DNA of 63,111 bases, counting the filler, from Hausera hauseri (taxonomy: Eukaryota), in assembly GCA_046269625.1 (NCBI GenBank). It is 11 parts of 11 records of this genome, joined end to end, with 100 filler letters (N's around TTAATTAATTAA, not from the genome) between each part and the next. Parts side by side here need not be neighbours in the genome. Positions count along the whole stretch, not along the records: positions 14,587 to 20,545 come from JBJURY010162643.1; 10 more parts are not named here. One strand, 5' to 3'. The notes beneath the pieces are model-generated. The model was given only the letters and a program-made list of their open reading frames with translations, searched no databases and was not told the DNA's origin. The position numbers and the translations under genes were made by a program. Below, in pieces: positions 14,587 to 46,472 of the stretch. Numbering within the stretch: the stretch's first letter is position 1; each line of letters opens with the position of its first letter.

Positions 14587-14838
14587 ATTTTTAAAAAAAG
14601 TAGCCAATTTAATTCGTCTGTGATAATTTTGTAAGTCAAATTTAGTCTCTAATTGGTTGTTTAAGTTAAAATTTGGGGTTGGAATAAAGGTTAAGCCTCT
14701 CTCCAAAATTTGTTTCTGAACCGTACTTAATTGGAAGTTTTTAGCCAAATTAATAACATTTCTTTTGACCAGATTAGCTGTATTTTTATTACTTAGTTGC
14801 CCCTCCAACTGGTGGCTTATGGGGCTAATAAGTTTAAA
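14587..14838 (-). CDS. N-terminal part of the PLE RT ORF (continues at 20468 through the circular join)
   Basis: VINLAKNFQLS..QKQILERGLTFIPTP and YHRRIKL are conserved PLE N-terminal motifs; no ATG in this part. Confidence 0.85.
14795..14838 (-). promoter_or_regulatory. Candidate -1 ribosomal frameshift signal: T_TTA_AAC plus downstream stem
   Basis: Heptamer at 14838-14832 is in X_XXY_YYZ phase with ORF1; 6-nt spacer; GCCCC (14825-14821) can pair with GGGGC (14803-14799). The -1 frame is the RT ORF. Confidence 0.7.
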
Positions 14839-16847
14839 TACGAGGCCCAAAGGGCAAAAATGCTCTTAGCTGTGTCCTTTGTCCAGTGTATGTTGTCAGT
14901 CTCTGTCTTGAAGTCCGTGTTCGGTAATTTTGGTAGGTAAGGAAGTTTTGTTTTGATGTGATTATTTAAAATCTGCAATGTAGCTCTGTCTGATGAGCAC
15001 AAGTTTGGAGAATAGTTGATTAAAGGAATCCAAATGTCTGCATTTGGAAACCTTGTTCTAGCTACTCTGATGGCAGCTGAGAGTTGCCTAATCGCAGTTT
15101 CATTGGCTGATTGTCGTCTGTTATTAATGCCAAAAGACATCACCAACAATTTCAGCTCCAAGGAACCATCTGATTTTTTTAGCAACGCTTCAGCATGCCT
15201 AAAGTTAGCTCCAGGAAAGCACTCAATCTGGAGATCTTCAACTGAGTGAGTTGGGAAGTTAGCTAAATTGGAATCTCCAATTATTAGCCACTTTTTTGTC
15301 ACATTTAAACCCCAATCAATCAGCTTCCTTTGAGTGTTTGGATTCCTGTGTACTTTAAAAACTCCAACAGGTGTAGATGTTACTCTGTCAGCTAATTGAC
15401 TAGCTTGATCCAGAGCTTGGTCCATACTAGACTCCCTCATAAACTCATTCTCCAAACTTGCAGTGATCTGATCCTGTGCCTCGGGACTGCTGGTAAGGTC
15501 AACCACTGGGGTCACGTCCAACTGTCCAGACGGCAGCCTGTCCGGTGTTTGGGATGAGGTCGGCGTCTCCACGTTCTCCGGTGGATCAAAAAGATCAGCA
15601 GAACCCACAGACTCATCAAGGGCCTGCTGGCTCGAACTGGGCCTTCCGCACACCGGTCTGCGAACCACCGAGTCCTCACTGTCACTCCCGTCAGTCGTCG
15701 CCCCCCCAGTCCTAAAGTCAGTCATTGTTCCCACATCACACAATGTTTTGGTTTCATGAGCTGCAGCTAACATGCTAGTCTGAACTGCTACTCCTTTAGC
15801 TGCTCTCTTCCTTTGTGTGTTGGTTTGTGTGACTTTTTTAACACAGGTCTTCAAAATGTTCCTCACTTTAACCAAAACTTCGTCAGTCAGTCTCGTCAGG
15901 TATTTCTTGCACCTTGTTGTTGCTGTGTCAAAAAGTACAGTCCAGTCAGAGTCCAGTTGTCCTGAAAGTTCGCCTGTCATTTCGTCAATCTGCTTGTCAT
16001 AGTGAGCCTGAAGAATGCTAATAGTAGCATCCCCCCACGCTCTAGCGTTTTCAGCCACCAGTCTTAATGTGTCATCTGTTGGACAAGCTGGTTTCACCAT
16101 ATTGGTTAGATTAACCACCATCCTCGAAATCATTTTAGGTTCTGGCTTGTTGTCTGACAGACACACATTCTCACGGTGATGAAACAACTTTATCATCTGT
16201 TCCATTTTAGTAAGCAGTTGTTTATTAGCAGGCTCTGACTCGACTCTGACTGGCTGGTTCCTAACCCTTTTCAACTGGACCTGTCTGGGGACAAATCCAG
16301 CAGGCCTTCCTGCTGTCACATCAGCATAAGACCTAACAGTAAGGACCTGAGGACCAGGCCTGGCCTCAGTCTCACTCCTTGCTGGTTCATGTCGTTGAGT
16401 AACTCGTTTAGGCTTTGGTTGTGGATCAGCTAACCTCTTACGTGGTTTAGTTGCAGAATCCCACCTGCCTTCCTCGTTCCTCAACTCAACAAACTCCCTC
16501 CTTTTAAAATGTGCCCTCTCCGGTTTTCCCGGAGGGGCAGAGTCCCTACATCCGTAGGGTCTCTTTCTCTTTTCCCCTCTCTCACCTTGTCTGTCCCACA
16601 CACTGCTCCTTGGAGCTGCATTGTAGTGAGGCTGATTAGAAGGAGGCCGTATGTAGGCCCTTTGACCCAGGGGAGGAACCGGCCAGTCAGAGTCAAAGTG
16701 GCGAGGATGCCCTCTAAAAGGGGCATTAAAATGCCTATCCTCCCTCCAGTAGGGCTTCCGGCTGTGGGCACGCGGGGGGCGTTGTGGACGACGAGGTCGT
16801 CCTCTTGGCCCAACCATAGTCCACCCCTCCTCTTCATCAGACCTCAT
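14817..16847 (-). CDS. PLE ORF1 (676 aa): basic N-terminus, helical core, C-terminal SGNH/GDSL hydrolase
   Basis: Intact ORF with all four SGNH blocks: IIGDSNL, FPGA, FGINN, DNIH. Confidence 0.85.
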   Translation of the reverse strand: MRSDEEEGWTMVGPRGRPRRPQRPPRAHSRKPYWREDRHFNAPFRGHPRHFDSDWPVPPLGQRAYIRPPSNQPHYNAAPRSSVWDRQGERGEKRKRPYGCRDSAPPGKPERAHFKRREFVELRNEEGRWDSATKPRKRLADPQPKPKRVTQRHEPARSETEARPGPQVLTVRSYADVTAGRPAGFVPRQVQLKRVRNQPVRVESEPANKQLLTKMEQMIKLFHHRENVCLSDNKPEPKMISRMVVNLTNMVKPACPTDDTLRLVAENARAWGDATISILQAHYDKQIDEMTGELSGQLDSDWTVLFDTATTRCKKYLTRLTDEVLVKVRNILKTCVKKVTQTNTQRKRAAKGVAVQTSMLAAAHETKTLCDVGTMTDFRTGGATTDGSDSEDSVVRRPVCGRPSSSQQALDESVGSADLFDPPENVETPTSSQTPDRLPSGQLDVTPVVDLTSSPEAQDQITASLENEFMRESSMDQALDQASQLADRVTSTPVGVFKVHRNPNTQRKLIDWGLNVTKKWLIIGDSNLANFPTHSVEDLQIECFPGANFRHAEALLKKSDGSLELKLLVMSFGINNRRQSANETAIRQLSAAIRVARTRFPNADIWIPLINYSPNLCSSDRATLQILNNHIKTKLPYLPKLPNTDFKTETDNIHWTKDTAKSIFALWASYLNLLAP

Positions 16848-17147
16848 TTTTATTTATTTTCTCTTTTTGGAGATGTGTGTGTGTGTAAGTGTGTGAGTGT
16901 GGTGGTGGGGAATGAGTGTGGGAGTGCTTGTGAACGTTTTTTTAATTTATTTTTTTATTTTATTAATTTTTTTGTTTATTTTTCTAATTTTATGATTGTT
17001 TTTTGTCTTTTTTAATTTAATTTTATCAATTTTTTATTGTCTTTTTTTATTTTTATGAGTTTTTTTGGTCTTTTTAATTTATTTTTAATATAATTTGGAG
17101 GTTTGAATTAAAATGTGAGCACTAAAAAGTGCTGTTTATTTTTAAAT

Positions 17148-17205
17148 GTGCCAACTCTCGCGACGTTTCGATCCCGTGGGATCTTCCTCAGGCTTAGGTT
17201 GGCAC
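17148..17205 (-). ncRNA. Minimal type I hammerhead ribozyme
   Basis: Minus strand reads GTGCCAAC-CTAA-GC-CTGAGGA-A-GATCC-CACG-GGATC-GAAA-CG-TC-GC-GAGA-GTTGGCAC: CUGANGA and GAAA boxes, 5-bp stem II, palindromic stem III, GUC site, extended stem I. Confidence 0.9.
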
Positions 17206-17689
17206 CTGGTCTAAATGTTGCACGAAGCACAGTTAAAAACTGCTTGCACGCACTGTGAACCTCGCTTTCAGAATTCAAAGAATAAACTCGTTCTATCAAC
17301 CTCCTCTGTCTGTGTCTCGCTGTGGAATGAACCAGGAAACTCGGTGAGTCAGCTTTTAAGCAGGAGCGGGTGCCCCTCCCGTCCTGTGTCGCTGGCCCCA
17401 CCCTCTCCGGTACAGCTGACCCGGAGAAGCAGCTTCTGCTGCAGGGAGACCTATGTGACTCCTTTATTTTAATTTAATTTGGCCAAATTGAACTTTAAAA
17501 ATATTTCAAATTAACAATCTTATTTAAAACCCTCCCAATTAATTTTCCTGATTCAAATTTAAATAATTTAACCCAATTTAATAAATAAAATGCCAATTAA
17601 TTCTCTAATAAATCCCAATTTGACTATATAACTAACTTTAAATCTGTGATAAAAATTAAATAACTAACCCTATCCTATATTAATTTGGT

Positions 17690-18330
17690 GAAGCATCTTT
17701 AACGATGTTCAAATTGATAAAATTTAATAAAATTAACTCATAAAACCCCCTTAGGAAACCTCTTTAACGATTGTTTCCTAAGTTTAAAGTACCCCCTAAA
17801 ACATCTTTAACGATGTCTTAAATAAATATAAATTATTCTAAATTTAGCTAAACCCAATTAAAAAATGACTCTTTTAACAGTAGTCATGTTCAATATAATA
17901 ATTCTAATTAACCCCAATTAAAAAATGAAAAAACATCTTTAACGATGTTTTACAAAATAATTAATTTCATGCCGACTAAATTTAGTTATGCCCAATTAAA
18001 ACCAAGATCCCTTTAACGGGGTCCTGGCTGCCCTGATGCTTTCCCGGTTCCCTCACCTGTGGACCAATCAGATTTCGTGAGGTTAATATGGGGCGTCAAA
18101 AGCGAGTGGTTAGCCTCAGGGCAGGCAGTCATGTCCAGGTGTCCTTCGGAGCCCCACCTATCAACAGACAGGTAAGTCACCTGGTTATTATGGGGCGTTT
18201 GGTAACTAATAACCATGGGTTGGTTAATTTCAGGCGATAATATACAAAATTTAAGCTAATATCAATTGGTTAATATGAGGCGTCGTGACTTAACCAGCGT
18301 CACCTCCTCTGGTTATTATGAGGTTTTTAA
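17690..18330. repeat. Two short-motif arrays in the PLE non-coding region
   Basis: (CA)TCTTTAACGATG-like unit about 4 times (near 17695, 17761, 17802, 17934); GGTTA(A/T)TATG(G/A)GGCGT-like unit about 4 times (near 18081, 18183, 18268, 18311). Confidence 0.75.
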
Positions 18331-18467
18331 CCCTCAAAAACAACCAGAAAACTAACAAATAAACATCGCCATGACAAAAACAAATTAACAAACACCGAGT
18401 GAGGTTTAAAAATAGAACTGAAGCCGTTCCGTTGTCGTGCGTATAAGCTAGCGTTTAACACCAGAAA

Positions 18468-20545
18468 TTACGGCTGCGGCTCTGACGTCACTGGATCCTG
18501 AGTCCAGAAAGAGGCTTGGATTTCACCCAGACCCAGGTTTCGGGTCCAGATCCTCCTAGCTTTTTCCCTTTCGGACTCAGTCCAGCCGTCATTTTTTTGC
18601 AAACCAGTAATTTTCCAGTTTCGTGAGTCGTGTTTGTGAGTGCGTTCGGTGTAACGCTGTTTTGACCCACAAAGTTGGACAATTTCATCCAGCTTACCCG
18701 AGATTGTGCCCTCACAGTCTTCCACAAATTCAAAACCACAAAGCTTACAAGTAATTAAAAACACACAATTTTTACACCATTCCGTGAACTTTTGCACTAT
18801 CGGAAATACTGTTTTGTTGTGTTTGTTTTTAATAAAACTTGAGCTTCTCATTTTTTCAGACCATTTTTCTTGTTTTCTTTCCAATTTACTGCCAAATTTA
18901 GCTCTTACCAATGAATCACTTAAATTTTTATTTCTCCTGTAGGCTGCCACCACCGTAGTGTCGCTCAGCACCCCGGAGCTCTGCAGGTAAGTTTCAAAAT
19001 TGTTTTTAATTTGTTGATTAAACCAAACATTTTTTTCTGAGAAGGTGGTTATGAAGGGGATCTTATCACCCTCCTTCACTATCCTCCTCTCAGAAACGCT
19101 TTTTAAGCAGGCCTTTAAAAAGCCTCTTGAATAACCTCTCCTTAATAGGGAGGTAAATAAAATAATGACTGCTTCCCAGAAATCCTCCTTTCTGGTACAA
19201 ATCCTCTGAAATCTAATCAGTTGAGACTTTACAATACCTTTAAAGGTATGTTGTGGGTGATAACTAGATTTGTGTAACAGGGCGTGGGTGTCTGTTACTT
19301 TAAAAAACACTTTGATGCTCAACTGTTGTGTAGCTAAAAAGTCAGGTCCCTTAAACACAGTTGTGTCCAAAAAGTCAATTGATTTGTCATCAATGACTTT
19401 TTTGCACTTAATTGATGGATCATGGCTATTAAGGATGGAAATAAATTCCTCAAATTCCTCCAAGGAATATTCCCAGATTCCAAAGATGTCATCTAAGAAC
19501 CTGTGATAACACATGGGTTTCTTAGTGCACTTTAAAAGGACTTCTGTTTCCCATTTAGCCATGAAAATGTTGGCATAAGCTGGGGCAAATCTTTTGCCCA
19601 TAGCTGTGCCTTTAATTTGGAGATAAAATTTAGAGTCAAATTCAAAATCATTTTTAGTCAAATTTATTTCTAATAGTTCTAAAATAGCCGAATCAGGTCT
19701 AATTGGGTCAGGATATTTTGAAAAACATTCTCTGACAGCTTGAAGGCCAGATGGAATGTCAATGTTTGTGTACAAACTGTCAATATCAATTGAAAATAAA
19801 AAAGAATTTGGAGGGACTCTGAGACTTTTAACAGTTTCTAAAAAATGATATGTGTCTTTAATGTAGGATTCGTGTTTTGTACCAAGAGGATTTAAATAAA
19901 AATCAATAAACTGGGCTGACCCATAGGTCTCTGACCCACAATCAGACACAATGGGTCTCCCAGCAGGGACTTCAAATGGAATAGACCATTTTTCAGGTTC
20001 TTTGTGGATCTTTGGGAGAATGTAGAACCTTCTAGGTCTAATTGGGCCATCTGGTTTTAAATATTCTAGTTGATTTTTTGTTATAATTTTGTCATTTGCC
20101 AATTGCTCAAAAATACGGTTCACAATAGGGATTGTTTCTGGATAAATTGGTTTATCCAATTCTTTGTAATATTGTTTGTCAGATAGTTGTCTCAATACTT
20201 CAAATTTATATTGTTCTTTAGATAAGATTACAATAGAGCTGCCTTTATCAGCTTTTTTCAGAACAATATCTTTATTTTTTGAGAGCTCCTTAAGAGCTTC
20301 TCTTTCAACTTCTGACATGTTAGAAGGAGGTCTGAGACTTTCTACTCCTAGCTCACAAACTTTATTGTCTTCCTGAATTAGGTAAGCCACTTCAAGTGGC
20401 AAATCCGCTAAATCAGGTGACCATCTTGATTTTGCTGAGAAGGGTGGAGGCTTAGACCTTCCTGTTTCATTTTTAAAAAAAGTAGCCAATTTAATTCGTC
20501 TGTGATAATTTTGTAAGTCAAATTTAGTCTCTAATTGGTTGTTTA
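18468..20545 (-). CDS. PLE reverse transcriptase with degenerate C-terminal GIY-YIG domain
   Basis: FYILPKIHK, GRPIVS, IDIDSLYTNI, QIKGTAMG..FAPAYANIFM, RFLDDIF, FLD, SYHP.HTFKGIVKSQ; open ORF; ends with an eroded endonuclease (CVFLITCKLCGFEFVED). Confidence 0.93.
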
Positions 20546-41513: not shown

Positions 41514-44500
41514 TTTTTAAGTAAGCGATATAGAGGTGCATTAATCTTTGAATTATCTGGTACATAAGTTGCGTAATAACCACAGAGTCCTAACCAGTGT
41601 CTCAACTCTTTCTGATTTTGTGGTTCCATGCAATCTGATATTTTATCCAATAATGATTTATCAGGTTTCGATCCTCCTTCTCCAACTATATAACCAAGGT
41701 AGGATACGGCATTTTGAGCCCATGTGCATTTCTTCGGATTTAATTTTAATCCGGCTTGTTCTAATCTCATAAATGTGTGTTCAATATCCTTTAGGTGTTT
41801 TTCCTCCGTCCTCGATGCTATCATCACATCATTTAAATATGCAAAGGCATGATCCAGTCCCATTAACATTTTGTTCATCAATCTTGTAAATATGGCTGGT
41901 CCGGTAGTAATACCAAACAGCATAACATTAAATTCGTAAACGCCATCGTGAGTCTTAAACGCCATCTTGTAACGGTCTTTGTCCTCTATTTCCAATTGCC
42001 AATATCCGGATCGTAAGTCCAGAGTGGTGAACCATTTCGCTCCAGAGAGTCTGTCTAGAGCCTCTTTTACCGATGGTAATGGAAAAGAATCCTTTATCAT
42101 AAGATTACTTAAGGCTCTGTAATCAATACAAAATCGGTGTTTTGTGGCGCCTTTCTTTTTAACCATAAGGATAGGCGAATACCATGATCTATAACTAGGT
42201 CTAATTATATCGGCCTTTAGCATCCGTTCGACTTCCTTTGTTATTTCGGGTCTTAGCGAATGTGGTGGAGGGTACCATTTTGTCATCTTCTGATCCTCCA
42301 GATCTATTTCTTCATTTGAGCCAGGCTTTTTCTTGAGCGGAATAGTCAGTTTTAACGCTTTCTCCCTACCGATGTCCTCTTCATCTTTAGCGATAATCGA
42401 TTTGTAGTGGCATAGTAATTTGTAAAATTGACAGTAAGTCTCAGGTGAAAACTTAGTGTCAATGTGAGGCGGAAATTCAGCATATTTATAAGGTTTCGCT
42501 TCGATGGTTATCGACGATACTCTATACGTGTCTCCTAGCGTAGTATAAGCATGGAGCTTAATAGGAGTTGGTGCATTGTTTGCTATTCGAATTGGTGCGC
42601 GAAGGAGTGTACTTTCGTAAGTACGTTACTGAGCGTTATATTTGGGTTTAACGTTTCCTTTGGCTCGAAATATACTGGCTGATCGTCATCTTGATGAATT
42701 TGTGCATAAATTATTATCTCTGTTCTTGGTGGGATATTCTCGTCTACTGGTATCCACACTTCTCCAAATTTTCTATCCTTAGCGTTTTTCACGCCTTTAT
42801 TGGGTCTGATCTCTATTAATTTACCTGTTTGCAAGTCAATTGCTATATTTGGTAGCCTTTTTAATAAATAGTATCCCAGAACAACATCGTTAGTTAATTG
42901 TTCCATGATTGCAAATTCATGTCGAAATGTTTGTCCAGCTAATTGGACTTCCGGGTTCCATTTAAACATTGGTTTTGACACCTGACCAAAAGCTCCTGTA
43001 CTACCTAGATTTTTCGTAGATGGCGGATATAACTGTCCTTTTACCATTTTAGGTATTGAATCATTTTGATGTAAGACATTTCAGAACCCGTATCGATTAG
43101 TTCATAAACTTCCCAGTCCTCAATAATGATTTTGGTGAAGGGTCTTCCTTCGATCACGGTTCCAAAACAATTTGCTGCTACTTTCGAACGTTTAGTCGCT
43201 GATATTTTGTGTCCGTTTATTCGTACGTCTGGGGCTGATAATATGTTTCCCGATAACTGTCTTAGTTCTTCATTTGGATATAATTCATTGTTCTCTACAT
43301 GTAGTTCTTCCATTTCATAAGTACTGATTAGCGGCTCTCTATTGTTGGTATGTAGTTCAGTATGTTGGAAGGTTTTTGATCTTGGGTTGTCCCAGACCGT
43401 CGATGTAGTTTCAATATTTCTAGGTTCTCTCTGTAAATACAACATCTTTGGATCATCTGCAGCTTGCCGGTAACACATTTTCTATAGAATTCAGTATCGT
43501 TTTGTTCCTTCATAAGGATCTTCTACACTAATTGTTCCTTTATAGATTTCCGTCTGATATGAGCTCATGGATCGTTTGTTACAATTTTTGTTGAATTGAG
43601 CGGTAGGAGGTAACATGGGTAATGGCGTTCTAACTACAGAGTACACCTTGTGTCTATTCATTCTTGAGAATGCTTCTCCTCCCTTAGGCTCGTCATCATC
43701 TGAATTATTTCTTCGTATATTCGGTTTTGTAGACCTCCGCTTCCGTAGGAATATCGGTCTCCCTCTTCGTTTTCGATTATAGTAACCGACATGACGTTCT
43801 ACGTCCGATTTCCATCTGCTTTCTTTGTACGCCTTTAGGAATTTTCCAAAAGGCGTTATGATTGCAGTCAAAATTTTACATGAGAATCCGGTTAGTGTAA
43901 ATAATTCGTACCCGTTTATTACTGCTTGGATGACTGCCTTAATCATTTGTATCAGAAAATATATTGCCAAAAATACGGATGCTGCTTGTCCGAAAATCAA
44001 AAATCTTCCCCAAATTTTGTAGAGTATTTCCGTTGTTACTCTTTGATAGTGGTTTACGCCAAGTAACGATTTCCATTTAGCCTGATATCGTGTGTCGTCT
44101 ACTACAGACGCCATAGCTCGATTTAGTTCATGTGTGTATTGTCGTGGAAAGGCAAGGAATTGTCTGAAAGCCTCGATTTCTTTTGGTCTATATATACCTT
44201 TCGACGAGGTATCTTAAAATTTATCGTCTGTGATTCCTTTTGCAAGATTAATTCCTGTCAGTTTGTTTGGAGAGGCGATAATACCTCCATTTGGCAGGCT
44301 AACCCAATCCGTTTCACTTCGTCTAAACATGGATTCTCCTAAGCTTGCTTTACAATTCTTCAAGATAGTCGGTTGGGTAGCGTTATCCAGTAGCACCCTT
44401 GTCAACGGTGTAGCTAATCTCGGAATATTTTGATAGATAACAGGAAGTTCCTGAATGCAACCTTTTTCTTCTACGTTGATGGGTACTTCTCTCTTTTCAC

Positions 44501-46472
44501 ATTCATAGGTTAGCAATACTTCGCCCATTACTCGGCCGAAAATTTCTTCTCTCATAGGAATTATTGGAGAAGCCAATTTCGGGTTTGCATGTATAAAAGC
44601 CGTTTTAGTTCTCATGATTTCTGTATCTAATTTACAATCATTCGTTATCATTTTGTGATATAATTCAGTTATTCCGACTTGTCCTTTGTAACAAAAGTAA
44701 TCATCCCTATTCTTCAAGTAATCCTCAATGCGGACGTCTTATGTTTCTAAATTATAAGTTTTTGTGCTTATTTCCGTTTCGGCTACAAAGAACGCCTCAT
44801 AGTTTGTGGCGAACATTACTACGTCTCAACGAGTCATCATCTCTTTATTTATAAATTTTAGTCCATGCGGATCCGAGATCAATATGGTAGGCGTAGGTTG
44901 TTCCGATACATCTTCTCGTGTCCTTGAATTGGTTTCTAATTTGTCCACGTATCTCTTTCCTGTAGTCTCATTGAACTTTAGCTCTTTAATTTTAATGAAA
45001 TTACAATTCCTTCCAGAAGAAGGTTCCCATATTAGAATCGAACTTCTAAAAGCACAGGTTCCATCTTGTAAATGGCATTTTTGGTTTTCAGTATATAACT
45101 TGGTAACACTATGAAACTTTACCTTCTGCGATCGAATTTCCGATTCGTAAAAATCAACAACCACCACGTTTGATTCTAATCCCTTTCCGGTATCATATTC
45201 TGCTCCATTACGATGTCCGCTATGCATGTCTAATCTTCCGGCCATTACCTTGTATGCCCTAATTATTTTTCCTGGTTGCATACCATCCCATTGTATTCTC
45301 ACAGTTTCCTTGGCTTGTTTGCAGTGCTGGCGTTCTAAGTTCATTGGAATTAGCGGAGTAGTCGGCTTGATTATAAATGAATGTCTATGAATCAACCCAC
45401 AATGAAAAATACTACGCGATCGTTTCAGCATACATTCCATTCCATCAAACGATATCAATTTTTGTTGTTGATACAGGAAGTAACTTTTCTCCCTTGTTGC
45501 TAGTTTGTGCGGTCTGGCATCCTCGCATACTTCTAATTCCATTAAGGAATATCTCTGTCCTAAATTAAACTTATCGCAATCATATACGGTTACCGTGCTT
45601 ATATGCTTTATTAGCATTATTAAGGTGAGCAAGCTGATCAGCCATTTTGATTCGTTTTTTTGACCTCCAACGTATGATGTTGTCAGGTTACGCAACATAT
45701 CGTCGTGTTTATTATTATTTCGTTTGTCTTCTTCCTTGTCAAATAGTCTTACCCAATTTACTTCGCAAGGCATTCTTTTTGCTGCTCTCCGTGCTAAGCT
45801 TATAACCCGATTGATTTCACTCTCTCAATTAAGATTTATTTTTATAGCTAAGTATAGCAATACTTTTCTCAATTCTTCATTCGTGTTTTCCACCATAATC
45901 TTTTCGATTACCGATTCATCAGTTAAATTTCTTTTTTGATAGTTTAAAACGCGAGCTTCGAATCATTTTGGCTGCATCGAAAATTATCTTTTCTTTGTCG
46001 TCCAACATATCGCCCTGAAAACTAGAATAATTCACAATTCGTATTAAATTTTTCATTAACTCACTTAATTCTTCATTCTCTGTGCTAAGAGCTGGGATCG
46101 GCATCTGTTTCAATTCTCTAATTAACTCTCCGTTGTATTCTATTTCTTCTCGCACTTTTCTAGGCCTACCTACTGGGTGTTTCTGTCTTGGACCTTTAGT
46201 GATTGATTCACTTAGTGGTACTAAGTTTATATCGTATTGTTCCTTATCTTCGTCCGTTTGTAAATACTCAAAATACAGGGCAGCGTCTCGGACTCCCATG
46301 ATTTGTCCTACGCATTGTTCTGTTTTAGCTTTACGTGTAGCTTCTTCTTTTGTCTGTTCGTTAGCTATTATTACCACTATCCGATTTGTTTCATCAGGAA
46401 TAATCCCGACGTCTATTAATTGTTCCAAGTCATCTAATATTCTACCTCTAAAATAAAATCTGTAGTTTAACT
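41514..46472 (-). mobile_element. Env-carrying Gypsy, copy 2: ORF X, glycoprotein, PR, RT (both ends missing)
   Basis: LIDTGSEMSYI protease and RT (LDLRSGYWQ, YLND) are homologous to copy 1; the glycoprotein lies upstream. Confidence 0.92.
43830..45650 (-). pseudogene. Chuvirus-like class III (gB-type) fusion glycoprotein with in-frame stops
   Basis: Signal peptide WLISLLTLIMLIKHIST, then VYDC..YSL..LEVC, C...R....CG..H, C.LQDGTC, LIW..C, GEVLL.YEC, C..ELPV, TPLTRVL, and membrane region WGRFLIFG..FLAIYFLI..INGY.L....GFS. All pieces are in one frame. Confidence 0.82.

Follow-up and report, generated by a model that had tools for sequence, protein, structure and literature searches.

Among mobile elements, Penelope-like elements (PLEs) have the reverse transcriptases (RTs) most closely related to telomerase. 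Retroviral and Ty3/gypsy elements express gag-pol by -1 frameshifting, which joins a structural ORF to the RT at an X XXY YYZ heptamer followed by a short spacer and a 3' structure. SGNH esterases have been described in PLEs, namely in the Neptune element Neptune1_Ren of Repbase (PMC3905857) and in Neptune-like elements of fish and molluscs (PMC5408684), and the 2021 legend of Fig. 1 in PMC8557442 mentions an optional PLE ORF1 separated by a frameshift, with a pseudoknot. Canonical members of the Neptune clade carry the RT, a GIY-YIG endonuclease (EN) at the C terminus, a hammerhead ribozyme and tandem copies (PMC8557442). Athena/Terminon, Coprina and the Neptune-like MjPLE01 have no working nuclease, but a hammerhead and head-to-tail arrays; Terminons contain GDSL ORFs, and MjPLE01 is a precedent for EN loss within Neptune (PMC8557442; PMC6431247). 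Outside PLEs, the ORF1 protein (ORF1p) of the CR1/L2 element ZfL2-1 (PDB 4c1b) combines an Arg-rich arm, a helical segment and a C-terminal SGNH esterase (PMC3905857).

Here we describe a contig from the window, i.e. the whole stretch of 63,111 nt that was analysed. The contig (14587-20545, complete between N-TTAATTAATTAA-N linkers) is most probably an intact unit of a two-ORF PLE, likely of teleost origin, whose RT is likely made as a minor esterase-RT fusion via a -1 frameshift and whose EN has lost its catalytic residues (Table 1). With Neptune1_Ren and the fish and mollusc elements it shares the SGNH ORF within a PLE, the conserved catalytic residues and, likely, fish hosts; these were compared by description only, and the text compared from PMC3905857 and PMC5408684 mentions neither a slippery site nor a dead EN or a telomeric tract. 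It resembles canonical Neptune in the position of RT and GIY-YIG domain, the hammerhead and probably the tandem copies, but has two ORFs instead of one, has lost the EN catalytic and CCHH His residues and, like its near teleost relatives, lacks the CX2-5CxxC linker between RT and EN. Linker and intact EN are found in the distant relatives L003 and L005, and the linker also in P0112. Like the EN-minus PLEs it has a hammerhead, no working nuclease and probably head-to-tail arrays. Unlike them it has an EN that is eroded in place rather than lacking entirely, no reverse-complement telomeric repeats adjoining the hammerhead of this copy, and a likely vertebrate host. From ZfL2-1, whose ORF1 plan it shares, it differs in RT class and in a helical part that forms a 145-aa multi-helix domain, and from retroviral and Ty3/gypsy gag-pol in having no protease, RNase H, integrase or LTRs and a hairpin instead of a demonstrated pseudoknot.

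The original prediction regarded this organisation as a candidate new architecture, a claim that is not supported, given the published SGNH-ORF1 of PLEs (PMC3905857; PMC5408684) and the PLE ORF1 frameshift in the Fig. 1 legend of PMC8557442. The two-ORF layout is common in relatives and partly in print. In the published text compared here, no U UUA AAC heptamer, dead-EN lineage or telomeric tract of a fish PLE is described; no literature combining Penelope, ribosomal frameshift, retrotransposon and GIY-YIG was found, and the excerpts of PMC7599744 and PMC5718144 hold nothing further on this architecture.

Results

Table 1. Features of the element, with positions in the window
Feature	Positions	Strand	Remarks
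Whole element	14587..20545	minus	Single unit of 5882 nt with an overlap of 77 nt; fills the contig
Terminal repeat, copy 1	14587..14663	.	77 nt, exact, inside ORF2
Terminal repeat, copy 2	20469..20545	.	
ORF2, 5' part	14587..14865	minus	-1 frame, no ATG, conserved N-terminal PLE motifs
Hairpin GCCCC/GGGGC	14799..14825	minus	6 nt behind heptamer; ORF1 stop in loop
ORF1	14817..16847	minus	676 aa counted from ATG at 16847
SGNH esterase domain	14820..15374	minus	C-terminal in ORF1; sequence and structure matches
Slippery heptamer U UUA AAC	14832..14838	minus	In ORF1 frame
SGNH motif DNIHW	14897-14883	minus	
SGNH motif GINN	15131-15120	minus	
SGNH motif PGAN	15215-15204	minus	
SGNH motif GDSN	15278-15267	minus	
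Five-helix domain, ORF1 aa ~205-350	15798..16235	minus	Conserved, pLDDT >90
Arg-rich region, ORF1 aa 1-200	16248..16847	minus	36 Arg; poorly conserved
Leader, predicted cut to ORF1 ATG	16848..17161	minus	~315 nt, 56% A
Minimal type-I hammerhead	17147..17206	minus	Stem II, palindromic stem III
Hammerhead GAAAC-GUC	17169-17162	minus	Predicted cut after 17162
Hammerhead CUGAGGA core	17191-17185	minus	
3' untranslated spacer	17207..18467	minus	Two short motif families, 4 copies each
Degenerate GIY-YIG domain	18468..18836	minus	Alignment to 45 GIY-YIG domains
ORF2 remainder	18468..20468	minus	Penelope-type RT, thumb, eroded EN
RT motif FLDD	19499-19488	minus	
RT motif A	19790-19776	minus	
RT motif DKG (ADKG)	20252-20241	minus	

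Among the 11 contigs of the window this is the only one with a terminal repeat, and no insertion junction of the element was seen. The repeat most likely represents a collapsed head-to-tail array and is likely an assembler overlap from a looped graph. The proposed closed unit is a property of the assembly rather than a demonstrated circle. The tandem or pseudo-LTR feature of PLEs appears as a looped contig in the window and directly only in relative L006, a real tandem with a period of 5441 and 3665/3696 identical positions. Both ORFs are open, as predicted unlike the other transposable elements of the window: the remaining contigs, 10 in number, hold no ORF longer than 471 aa, and the matched ORFs there are pieces of LTR-retrotransposon pol. 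The observed/expected CpG ratio is 0.49, compared to 0.74-1.20 in the other 10 contigs, and the named relatives are teleosts. Because of this CpG depletion and the teleost homologues the suspected foreign origin is supported, and the source of the element is likely a teleost fish. Among the 24 runs listed no RNA run carried the element, no relatives were present in the viral contigs scanned or in a metagenome scan with a single sequence as query, and the genomes behind L006-L008 yielded no further copies.

An esterase domain ends ORF1, in agreement with the prediction. Ser, Gly, Asn and Asp-x-x-His lie in four blocks of a flavodoxin-like fold, and the catalytic residues are intact (GDSN, G546, N575, D651-x-x-H654). 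The predicted structure matches PAF-acetylhydrolase (Z 17.0, rmsd 3.0, 170 aligned), and the single match below E 1 in a PDB sequence search was the ZfL2-1 ORF1 esterase (E 0.0013). By analogy with PMC3905857, the Arg-rich region is likely RNA-binding. The five-helix domain gave no usable match in the ESM Atlas. Annotations of fish genomes mislabel ORF1 homologues as host genes.

ORF2 and ORF1 share 49 nt. The frame of ORF2 stays open over 759 codons only if the terminal repeat is read through (from 14865 to 14587, which equals 20469, and on to 18468). Its first Met is residue 144, and conserved motifs sit upstream of it. In 8/8 related loci, all fetched with ORF1, ORF1 is followed by a PLE RT, and in 6/6 loci with ORF2 open back to the overlap ORF2 is in the -1 frame. 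T TTA AAC, the coronavirus heptamer, occurs in the element and in 5/8 loci; one locus, the most distant, has A AAA AAC, and two have near-matches. TTA encodes the Leu of the terminal Leu-Asn in 8/8 cases, compared to 37/328 ORF1 Leu codons overall and 10/40 internal Leu-Asn pairs, counts from related and hence not independent loci. X-Asn/Lys closes the esterase at the same place in 182/201 ORF1 proteins (155 with Leu-Asn; 9 not anchored), and the constraint could in part be one on the protein, with Leu-Asn closing the last esterase helix. The -1 reading of the heptamer, [FV]-K-L, is found in 7/8 RT homologues that extend far enough upstream. Since linkage, -1 frame and an in-frame X XXY YYZ heptamer are conserved, the gag-pol-like reading of the original prediction is supported.

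The hairpin is kept at 6 nt in 6/9 loci; in these six sequences 89.6% of alignment cells are paired and three pairs changed on both sides, in a model drawn from the same sequences it was scored on, with L003, L005 and L008 left out. In the latter (3/9 loci) the ORF1 stop directly follows the heptamer, without hairpin. The element's own hairpin folds weakly (z -0.6), and pseudoknot scores were equalled by 3-74 of 100 shuffles, leaving the hairpin only. In-frame ORF1-RT fusions were absent from 7003 candidates among longer proteins, which is weak evidence. Contigs of equal size (5518, 5211, 5239) occurred among the ORF1 and RT protein matches and were left out of the linkage count.

The RT is telomerase-related and has the upstream DKG motif of PLEs. 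The best structural matches of its model are TERTs (E 1e-11), and the best PDB sequence match has only E 0.24. Core identity to relatives is 63%, compared to 65% among the relatives themselves; the related two-ORF clade comprises 892 clusters at 50% identity (E up to 1e-30), and the RT tree holds 48 unnamed relatives. Read-based variants cover the RT half of the element. Among the 40 of 88 variants listed, mostly from one run and less one outside the ORF (39), 21 RT codon changes were synonymous and 6 were replacements (neutral share 0.26), and the RT half had no indels in 4 runs. This excess of synonymous changes shows that the RT is still under purifying selection.

In the EN region, identity to relatives is 30%, compared to 49% among the relatives, and 8 of 11 conserved positions checked are changed or absent: CxxC and Trp are kept, whereas the catalytic Tyr, Tyr, Gly, Arg, His, His, Glu and Asn are not. 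Each catalytic residue is retained by 44-45 of 45 relatives. The predicted dead endonuclease is thus true of this element but not a feature of the architecture, and homologues do not share it; judged from the alignment, erosion is specific to this lineage and not the family plan. Changes in the EN region were 5 synonymous and 3 replacement (P 0.03), and there is a hint that the region keeps a non-catalytic role.

The hammerhead of the original prediction was confirmed by its fold (z -3.7; 0/200 shuffles as good), its presence in 6/6 loci covering the spacer and stem II covariation (0/500 shuffles). Stem III is palindromic in all 6 loci, with three different sequences. It matches the minimal hammerhead described for PLEs in its palindromic helix III and its place within the repeat region (PMC4209133). 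An Rfam scan did not detect it and returned two chance matches only. Two relatives have leaders of 334 and 344 nt, and the spacer likely holds the promoter of the next unit.

Discussion

We propose that a head-to-tail array would be transcribed across units and that two hammerheads would pair via the palindromic stem III, so that the predicted ribozyme cleavage ~315 nt upstream of ORF1 releases unit-length RNA. Most ribosomes would yield ORF1p with its Arg-rich arm, helical domain and esterase, which would coat the element RNA and, by analogy with ZfL2-1 ORF1p, may bind membranes. A minority would slip at the heptamer to produce a putative esterase-RT fusion of ~1420 aa. With no nicking activity of its own, the RT would depend on 3' ends made by others as primers, adding units to existing arrays. 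Nicks by EN-intact sister families and chromosome ends are about equally plausible primers, and one of the two is probably used.

A rival reading is that the element is a specialist of chromosome ends, its family sitting at fish telomeres and this lineage having dropped its nuclease because the RT itself extends the telomeric 3' overhang, like Athena/Coprina. In L002 and L006 ~250 nt of degenerate CCCTAA-type repeats directly follow the ORF2 stop and end up upstream of the hammerhead by 650-700 nt. Their best 150-nt windows hold 38 and 44 exact telomeric 6-mers (median 0), but both of these relatives have an intact EN, and neither the element nor L003 and L005 contains such a tract, the CCCTAA hexamer being absent from the sense strand of the unit. 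The L006 contig starts with about six perfect telomeric repeats followed by a 5'-truncated unit, the C-rich strand being sense; as one contig end it could also be an internal telomeric target. A contig from run X3 joins the start of the element's spacer to a TTAGG-TTAGGG-like end, but is a single piece of 138 nt with 4 differences. The 450 nt that follow the element's stop contain six copies of TAACC (shuffle mean 0.68, 0/2000), mostly within one 4-copy motif. We therefore consider specialisation on telomeres possible but doubtful. Its fullest form is more tentative still: a large, barely described gag-pol-like PLE clade might occupy fish chromosome ends with telomere-mimic RNA tracts, the element representing a vertebrate lineage that switches from nuclease-driven to end-primed, telomerase-like retrotransposition.

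The dead EN would also fit an end of retrotransposition, with a satellite-like array passively amplified by recombination, or domesticated. A contig depth of ~990 in a single run, compared to 5-30 in three more, which is not a copy number, and the recovery of nearly the same sequence from runs that bear different organism codes point in this direction. However, both ORFs, the RT motifs, the heptamer and the hammerhead are intact, and recent RT changes are mostly synonymous, which passive amplification would not give. This reading is improbable, domestication being still conceivable. Slightly less probable is that ORF2 is translated without frameshifting, either after splicing or from an mRNA with its own start, in which case the overlap would be incidental. 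PLEs may contain spliceosomal introns (PMC4209133), but ORF2 has no ATG in its first 143 codons, the aligned junctions show by eye no pyrimidine-rich acceptor ahead of it, and the heptamer is conserved at the codon level, the most distant locus having A AAA AAC in its place. A free circular replicon or intermediate, as the exact repeat within ORF2 and the missing flanks could indicate, is highly improbable: a tandem array produces an identical assembly graph, assemblers commonly use a word length of 77, the relative L006 is arranged as a linear tandem, and chromosome-scale contigs carry the fish homologues.

The wide spread of a two-ORF, probably frameshifting clade shows that PLEs arrived at an expression plan like that of retroviruses. 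A lineage that is intact and selected, its nuclease being eroded, is a natural experiment on the origin of EN-minus PLEs. If the telomeric tracts of the relatives are targeting signals, vertebrates would possess telomere-associated retroelements.

Organization of the element

The layout of the original prediction was confirmed. The unit of 5882 nt consists, on the minus strand, of a hammerhead, a 315-nt leader, ORF1 with 676 aa, ORF2 with 759 codons (-1 frame, read through the terminal repeat) and a 1.3-kb spacer. As also predicted, both ORFs are more intact than the window's other transposable elements (the longest ORF in the other contigs has 471 aa, and the other elements matched are broken LTR-retrotransposon pieces), and the composition is unlike that of the neighbouring contigs (CpG observed/expected 0.49 versus 0.74-1.20). 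The proposed closed unit held only in part. Among the 11 contigs of the window only this one has a terminal repeat, which is exact over 77 nt, but a collapsed array most likely explains this repeat and a free circle is unnecessary; in the related locus L006 the units are genuinely arrayed head to tail, with a period of 5441. Contigs from all four sequencing runs compared continue past the ends of the element's RT half.

Positions of the features discussed (window coordinates unless a related locus is named)
Feature	Location	Strand
Contig of the element	14587-20545	-
Two spacer motif families	17690-17966; 18079-18328	
Region of high depth in run X3	18300-20545	
UPF0004 and radical SAM domain start	34500-35171	+
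Two ORF pieces, fusion glycoprotein family	43494-45824	-
CCCTAA-type tract, locus L002	2820-3075	
CCCTAA-type tract and telomeric-repeat contig start, locus L006	1-240; 5410-5680	
ORF2 end with IPFV...YSRHKNL block, locus L003	4095-4252	
(TACA)n run, locus L003	5385-5483	

The Rfam scan missed the hammerhead. Its core, stem II, G10.1-C11.1 pair and palindromic stem III agree with the minimal PLE hammerhead of PMC4209133, and it is present, with covariation, in six of six loci covering the spacer. Since that paper describes minimal PLE hammerheads as cleaving poorly in vitro and needing dimers, cutting to unit length is plausible on multi-unit transcripts only. The spacer also holds two motif families with four copies each, one a near-palindrome around CATCTTTAACGATG, the other closing with TAACC (sense strand). 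Neither was found in the five relatives compared, and they could be promoter or protein-binding sites.

Elsewhere in the window, two ORF pieces are similar to the Monjiviricetes fusion glycoprotein family (E 7e-16 and 2e-20) and may represent either a retroelement env-like gene or an endogenous viral piece. The UPF0004 and radical SAM start is putatively part of a MiaB-like methylthiotransferase gene.

ORF1 and its junction with ORF2

A single weak GDSL match (E 0.0046) was returned by the Pfam search of ORF1. ORF1 keeps all four conserved SGNH blocks intact, the predicted structure matches SGNH hydrolases with Z up to 17.0, and the ORF1 profile search retrieved the ORF1 esterase of the LINE ZfL2-1. 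The SGNH domain comes last, after an Arg-rich arm, a conserved five-helix domain and a disordered linker. A word-based search yielded 67 ORF1 homologues; the full search, at E up to 1e-30, gave 892 clusters, 150 of them listed. Among the matches listed, those with eukaryotic names were all teleosts for ORF1 (tilapias, turbot, snakehead, pomfret, carps), and likewise for the RT (sole, cod); one homologue cluster carries a ferret label in nr alongside a tilapia name. Fish genome annotations name the homologues P0018 and P0320-P0322 'F-box and leucine-rich repeat protein 13' or 'proteoglycan 4-like'; these are likely mis-annotations of this element. Loci L006, L007 and L008 place a retroelement of fish type inside three genomes filed as bacterial, likely through host contamination of these assemblies with fish DNA.

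The predicted gag-pol-like layout stood with regard to linkage, frame and heptamer. A PLE RT lies directly 3' of ORF1 in eight of eight loci fetched with ORF1, and in all six loci whose ORF2 stays open as far back as the overlap, it occupies the -1 frame. The element and 5/8 loci carry T TTA AAC in frame with ORF1; L005 has A AAA AAC at this position, and L007 and L008 have near-matches. TTA encodes Leu in 8/8 Leu-Asn ends of ORF1, against a baseline in the same ORF1s of 11% of Leu codons and 10/40 internal Leu-Asn pairs. The esterase domain ends in X-Asn/Lys in 182 of 201 ORF1 proteins, and [FV]-K-L stands at the junction in 7/8 RT homologues extending that far. In 6/9 loci the heptamer is followed by a hairpin (CCCC/GGGG) whose loop holds the ORF1 stop. 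Three pairs of the inner stem are compensatory, and the hairpin is weak when folded alone; a pseudoknot at this place found no support. Because conserved ORF2 motifs stand upstream of its first Met (residue 144), the best reading is a -1 slip, which would yield an ORF1-ORF2 fusion of ~1420 aa.

Erosion of the endonuclease domain

The element retains only two Cys and the Trp of 11 endonuclease (EN) positions checked (the Arg and His columns fall in a gappy alignment stretch), in line with the predicted dead endonuclease. Its place in a general architecture was not borne out, since each catalytic and CCHH position is retained in 44-45 of 45 RT homologues retrieved with the C-terminal region. In the EN region the element shares 30% identity with relatives that share 49% among themselves, whereas its RT core is not unusually distant from theirs (63% versus 65%). 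In a 48-row RT tree, rooted for drawing only and without the named PLE clades among its rows, its branch (0.66, median 0.22) is nested in a supported EN-intact group. Taken with the residues kept by the relatives, this alignment and tree evidence indicates that the EN loss is derived and lineage-specific. P0109, a second relative on a separate branch, shows partial erosion of the EN, with changes at the Arg, His and Glu positions; this is possibly an independent loss.

The erosion is not the decay of a single copy: of the 24 runs listed with the element's sequence words, 11 contain half or more, each under a different organism code, and the four runs compared over the RT half differ by 0-24 positions per long contig, without indels. 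Among 37 changed codons, counted from 39 rows (of 40 listed among 88), 21 synonymous and 6 replacement changes fell in the RT (neutral share 0.26, P 3e-8), one of each in the linker, and 5 and 3 in the EN region (P 0.03). Contig depth in run X3 was ~990, versus 5-30 for the other three, whose sequences are nearly the same; the excess may reflect amplification or another type of library.

Relationship to known elements

Contrary to what the original prediction had suggested, the architecture is not new in outline. PMC3905857 and PMC5408684 describe esterases in PLEs, listing Neptune1_Ren, and in Neptune-like PLEs of fish and molluscs, respectively, and according to the Fig. 1 legend of PMC8557442 an ORF1 may be set apart by a frameshift with a pseudoknot. 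The literature search, with Repbase and some key papers outside its scope, did not find the heptamer, the family size, the eroded-EN lineage or the telomeric tracts. The element is a PLE and probably descends from a Neptune-like, esterase-bearing clade. PMC8557442 also names a case of EN loss within Neptune, MjPLE01. Since it lacks two features of canonical Neptune, the catalytic GIY-YIG/CCHH residues and the CX2-5CxxC linker, it is not filed there, nor is it assigned to Athena or Coprina.

In the distant relative L003 the IPFV...YSRHKNL block lies after the EN, not before it.

In L002 and L006, both of them relatives with an intact EN, the ORF2 stop is directly followed by a degenerate CCCTAA-type tract. 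No such tract was found after ORF2 in the element, L003 or L005; the L003 contig instead terminates in a (TACA)n run that may be an insertion target. About six perfect telomeric repeats open the L006 contig and run into a truncated unit, and one X3 contig joins the start of the element's spacer to telomere-like letters. With these tracts and junctions, end-priming becomes a realistic, though unproven, option for this nuclease-dead lineage, about as likely as the use of nicks borrowed from EN-intact sisters.
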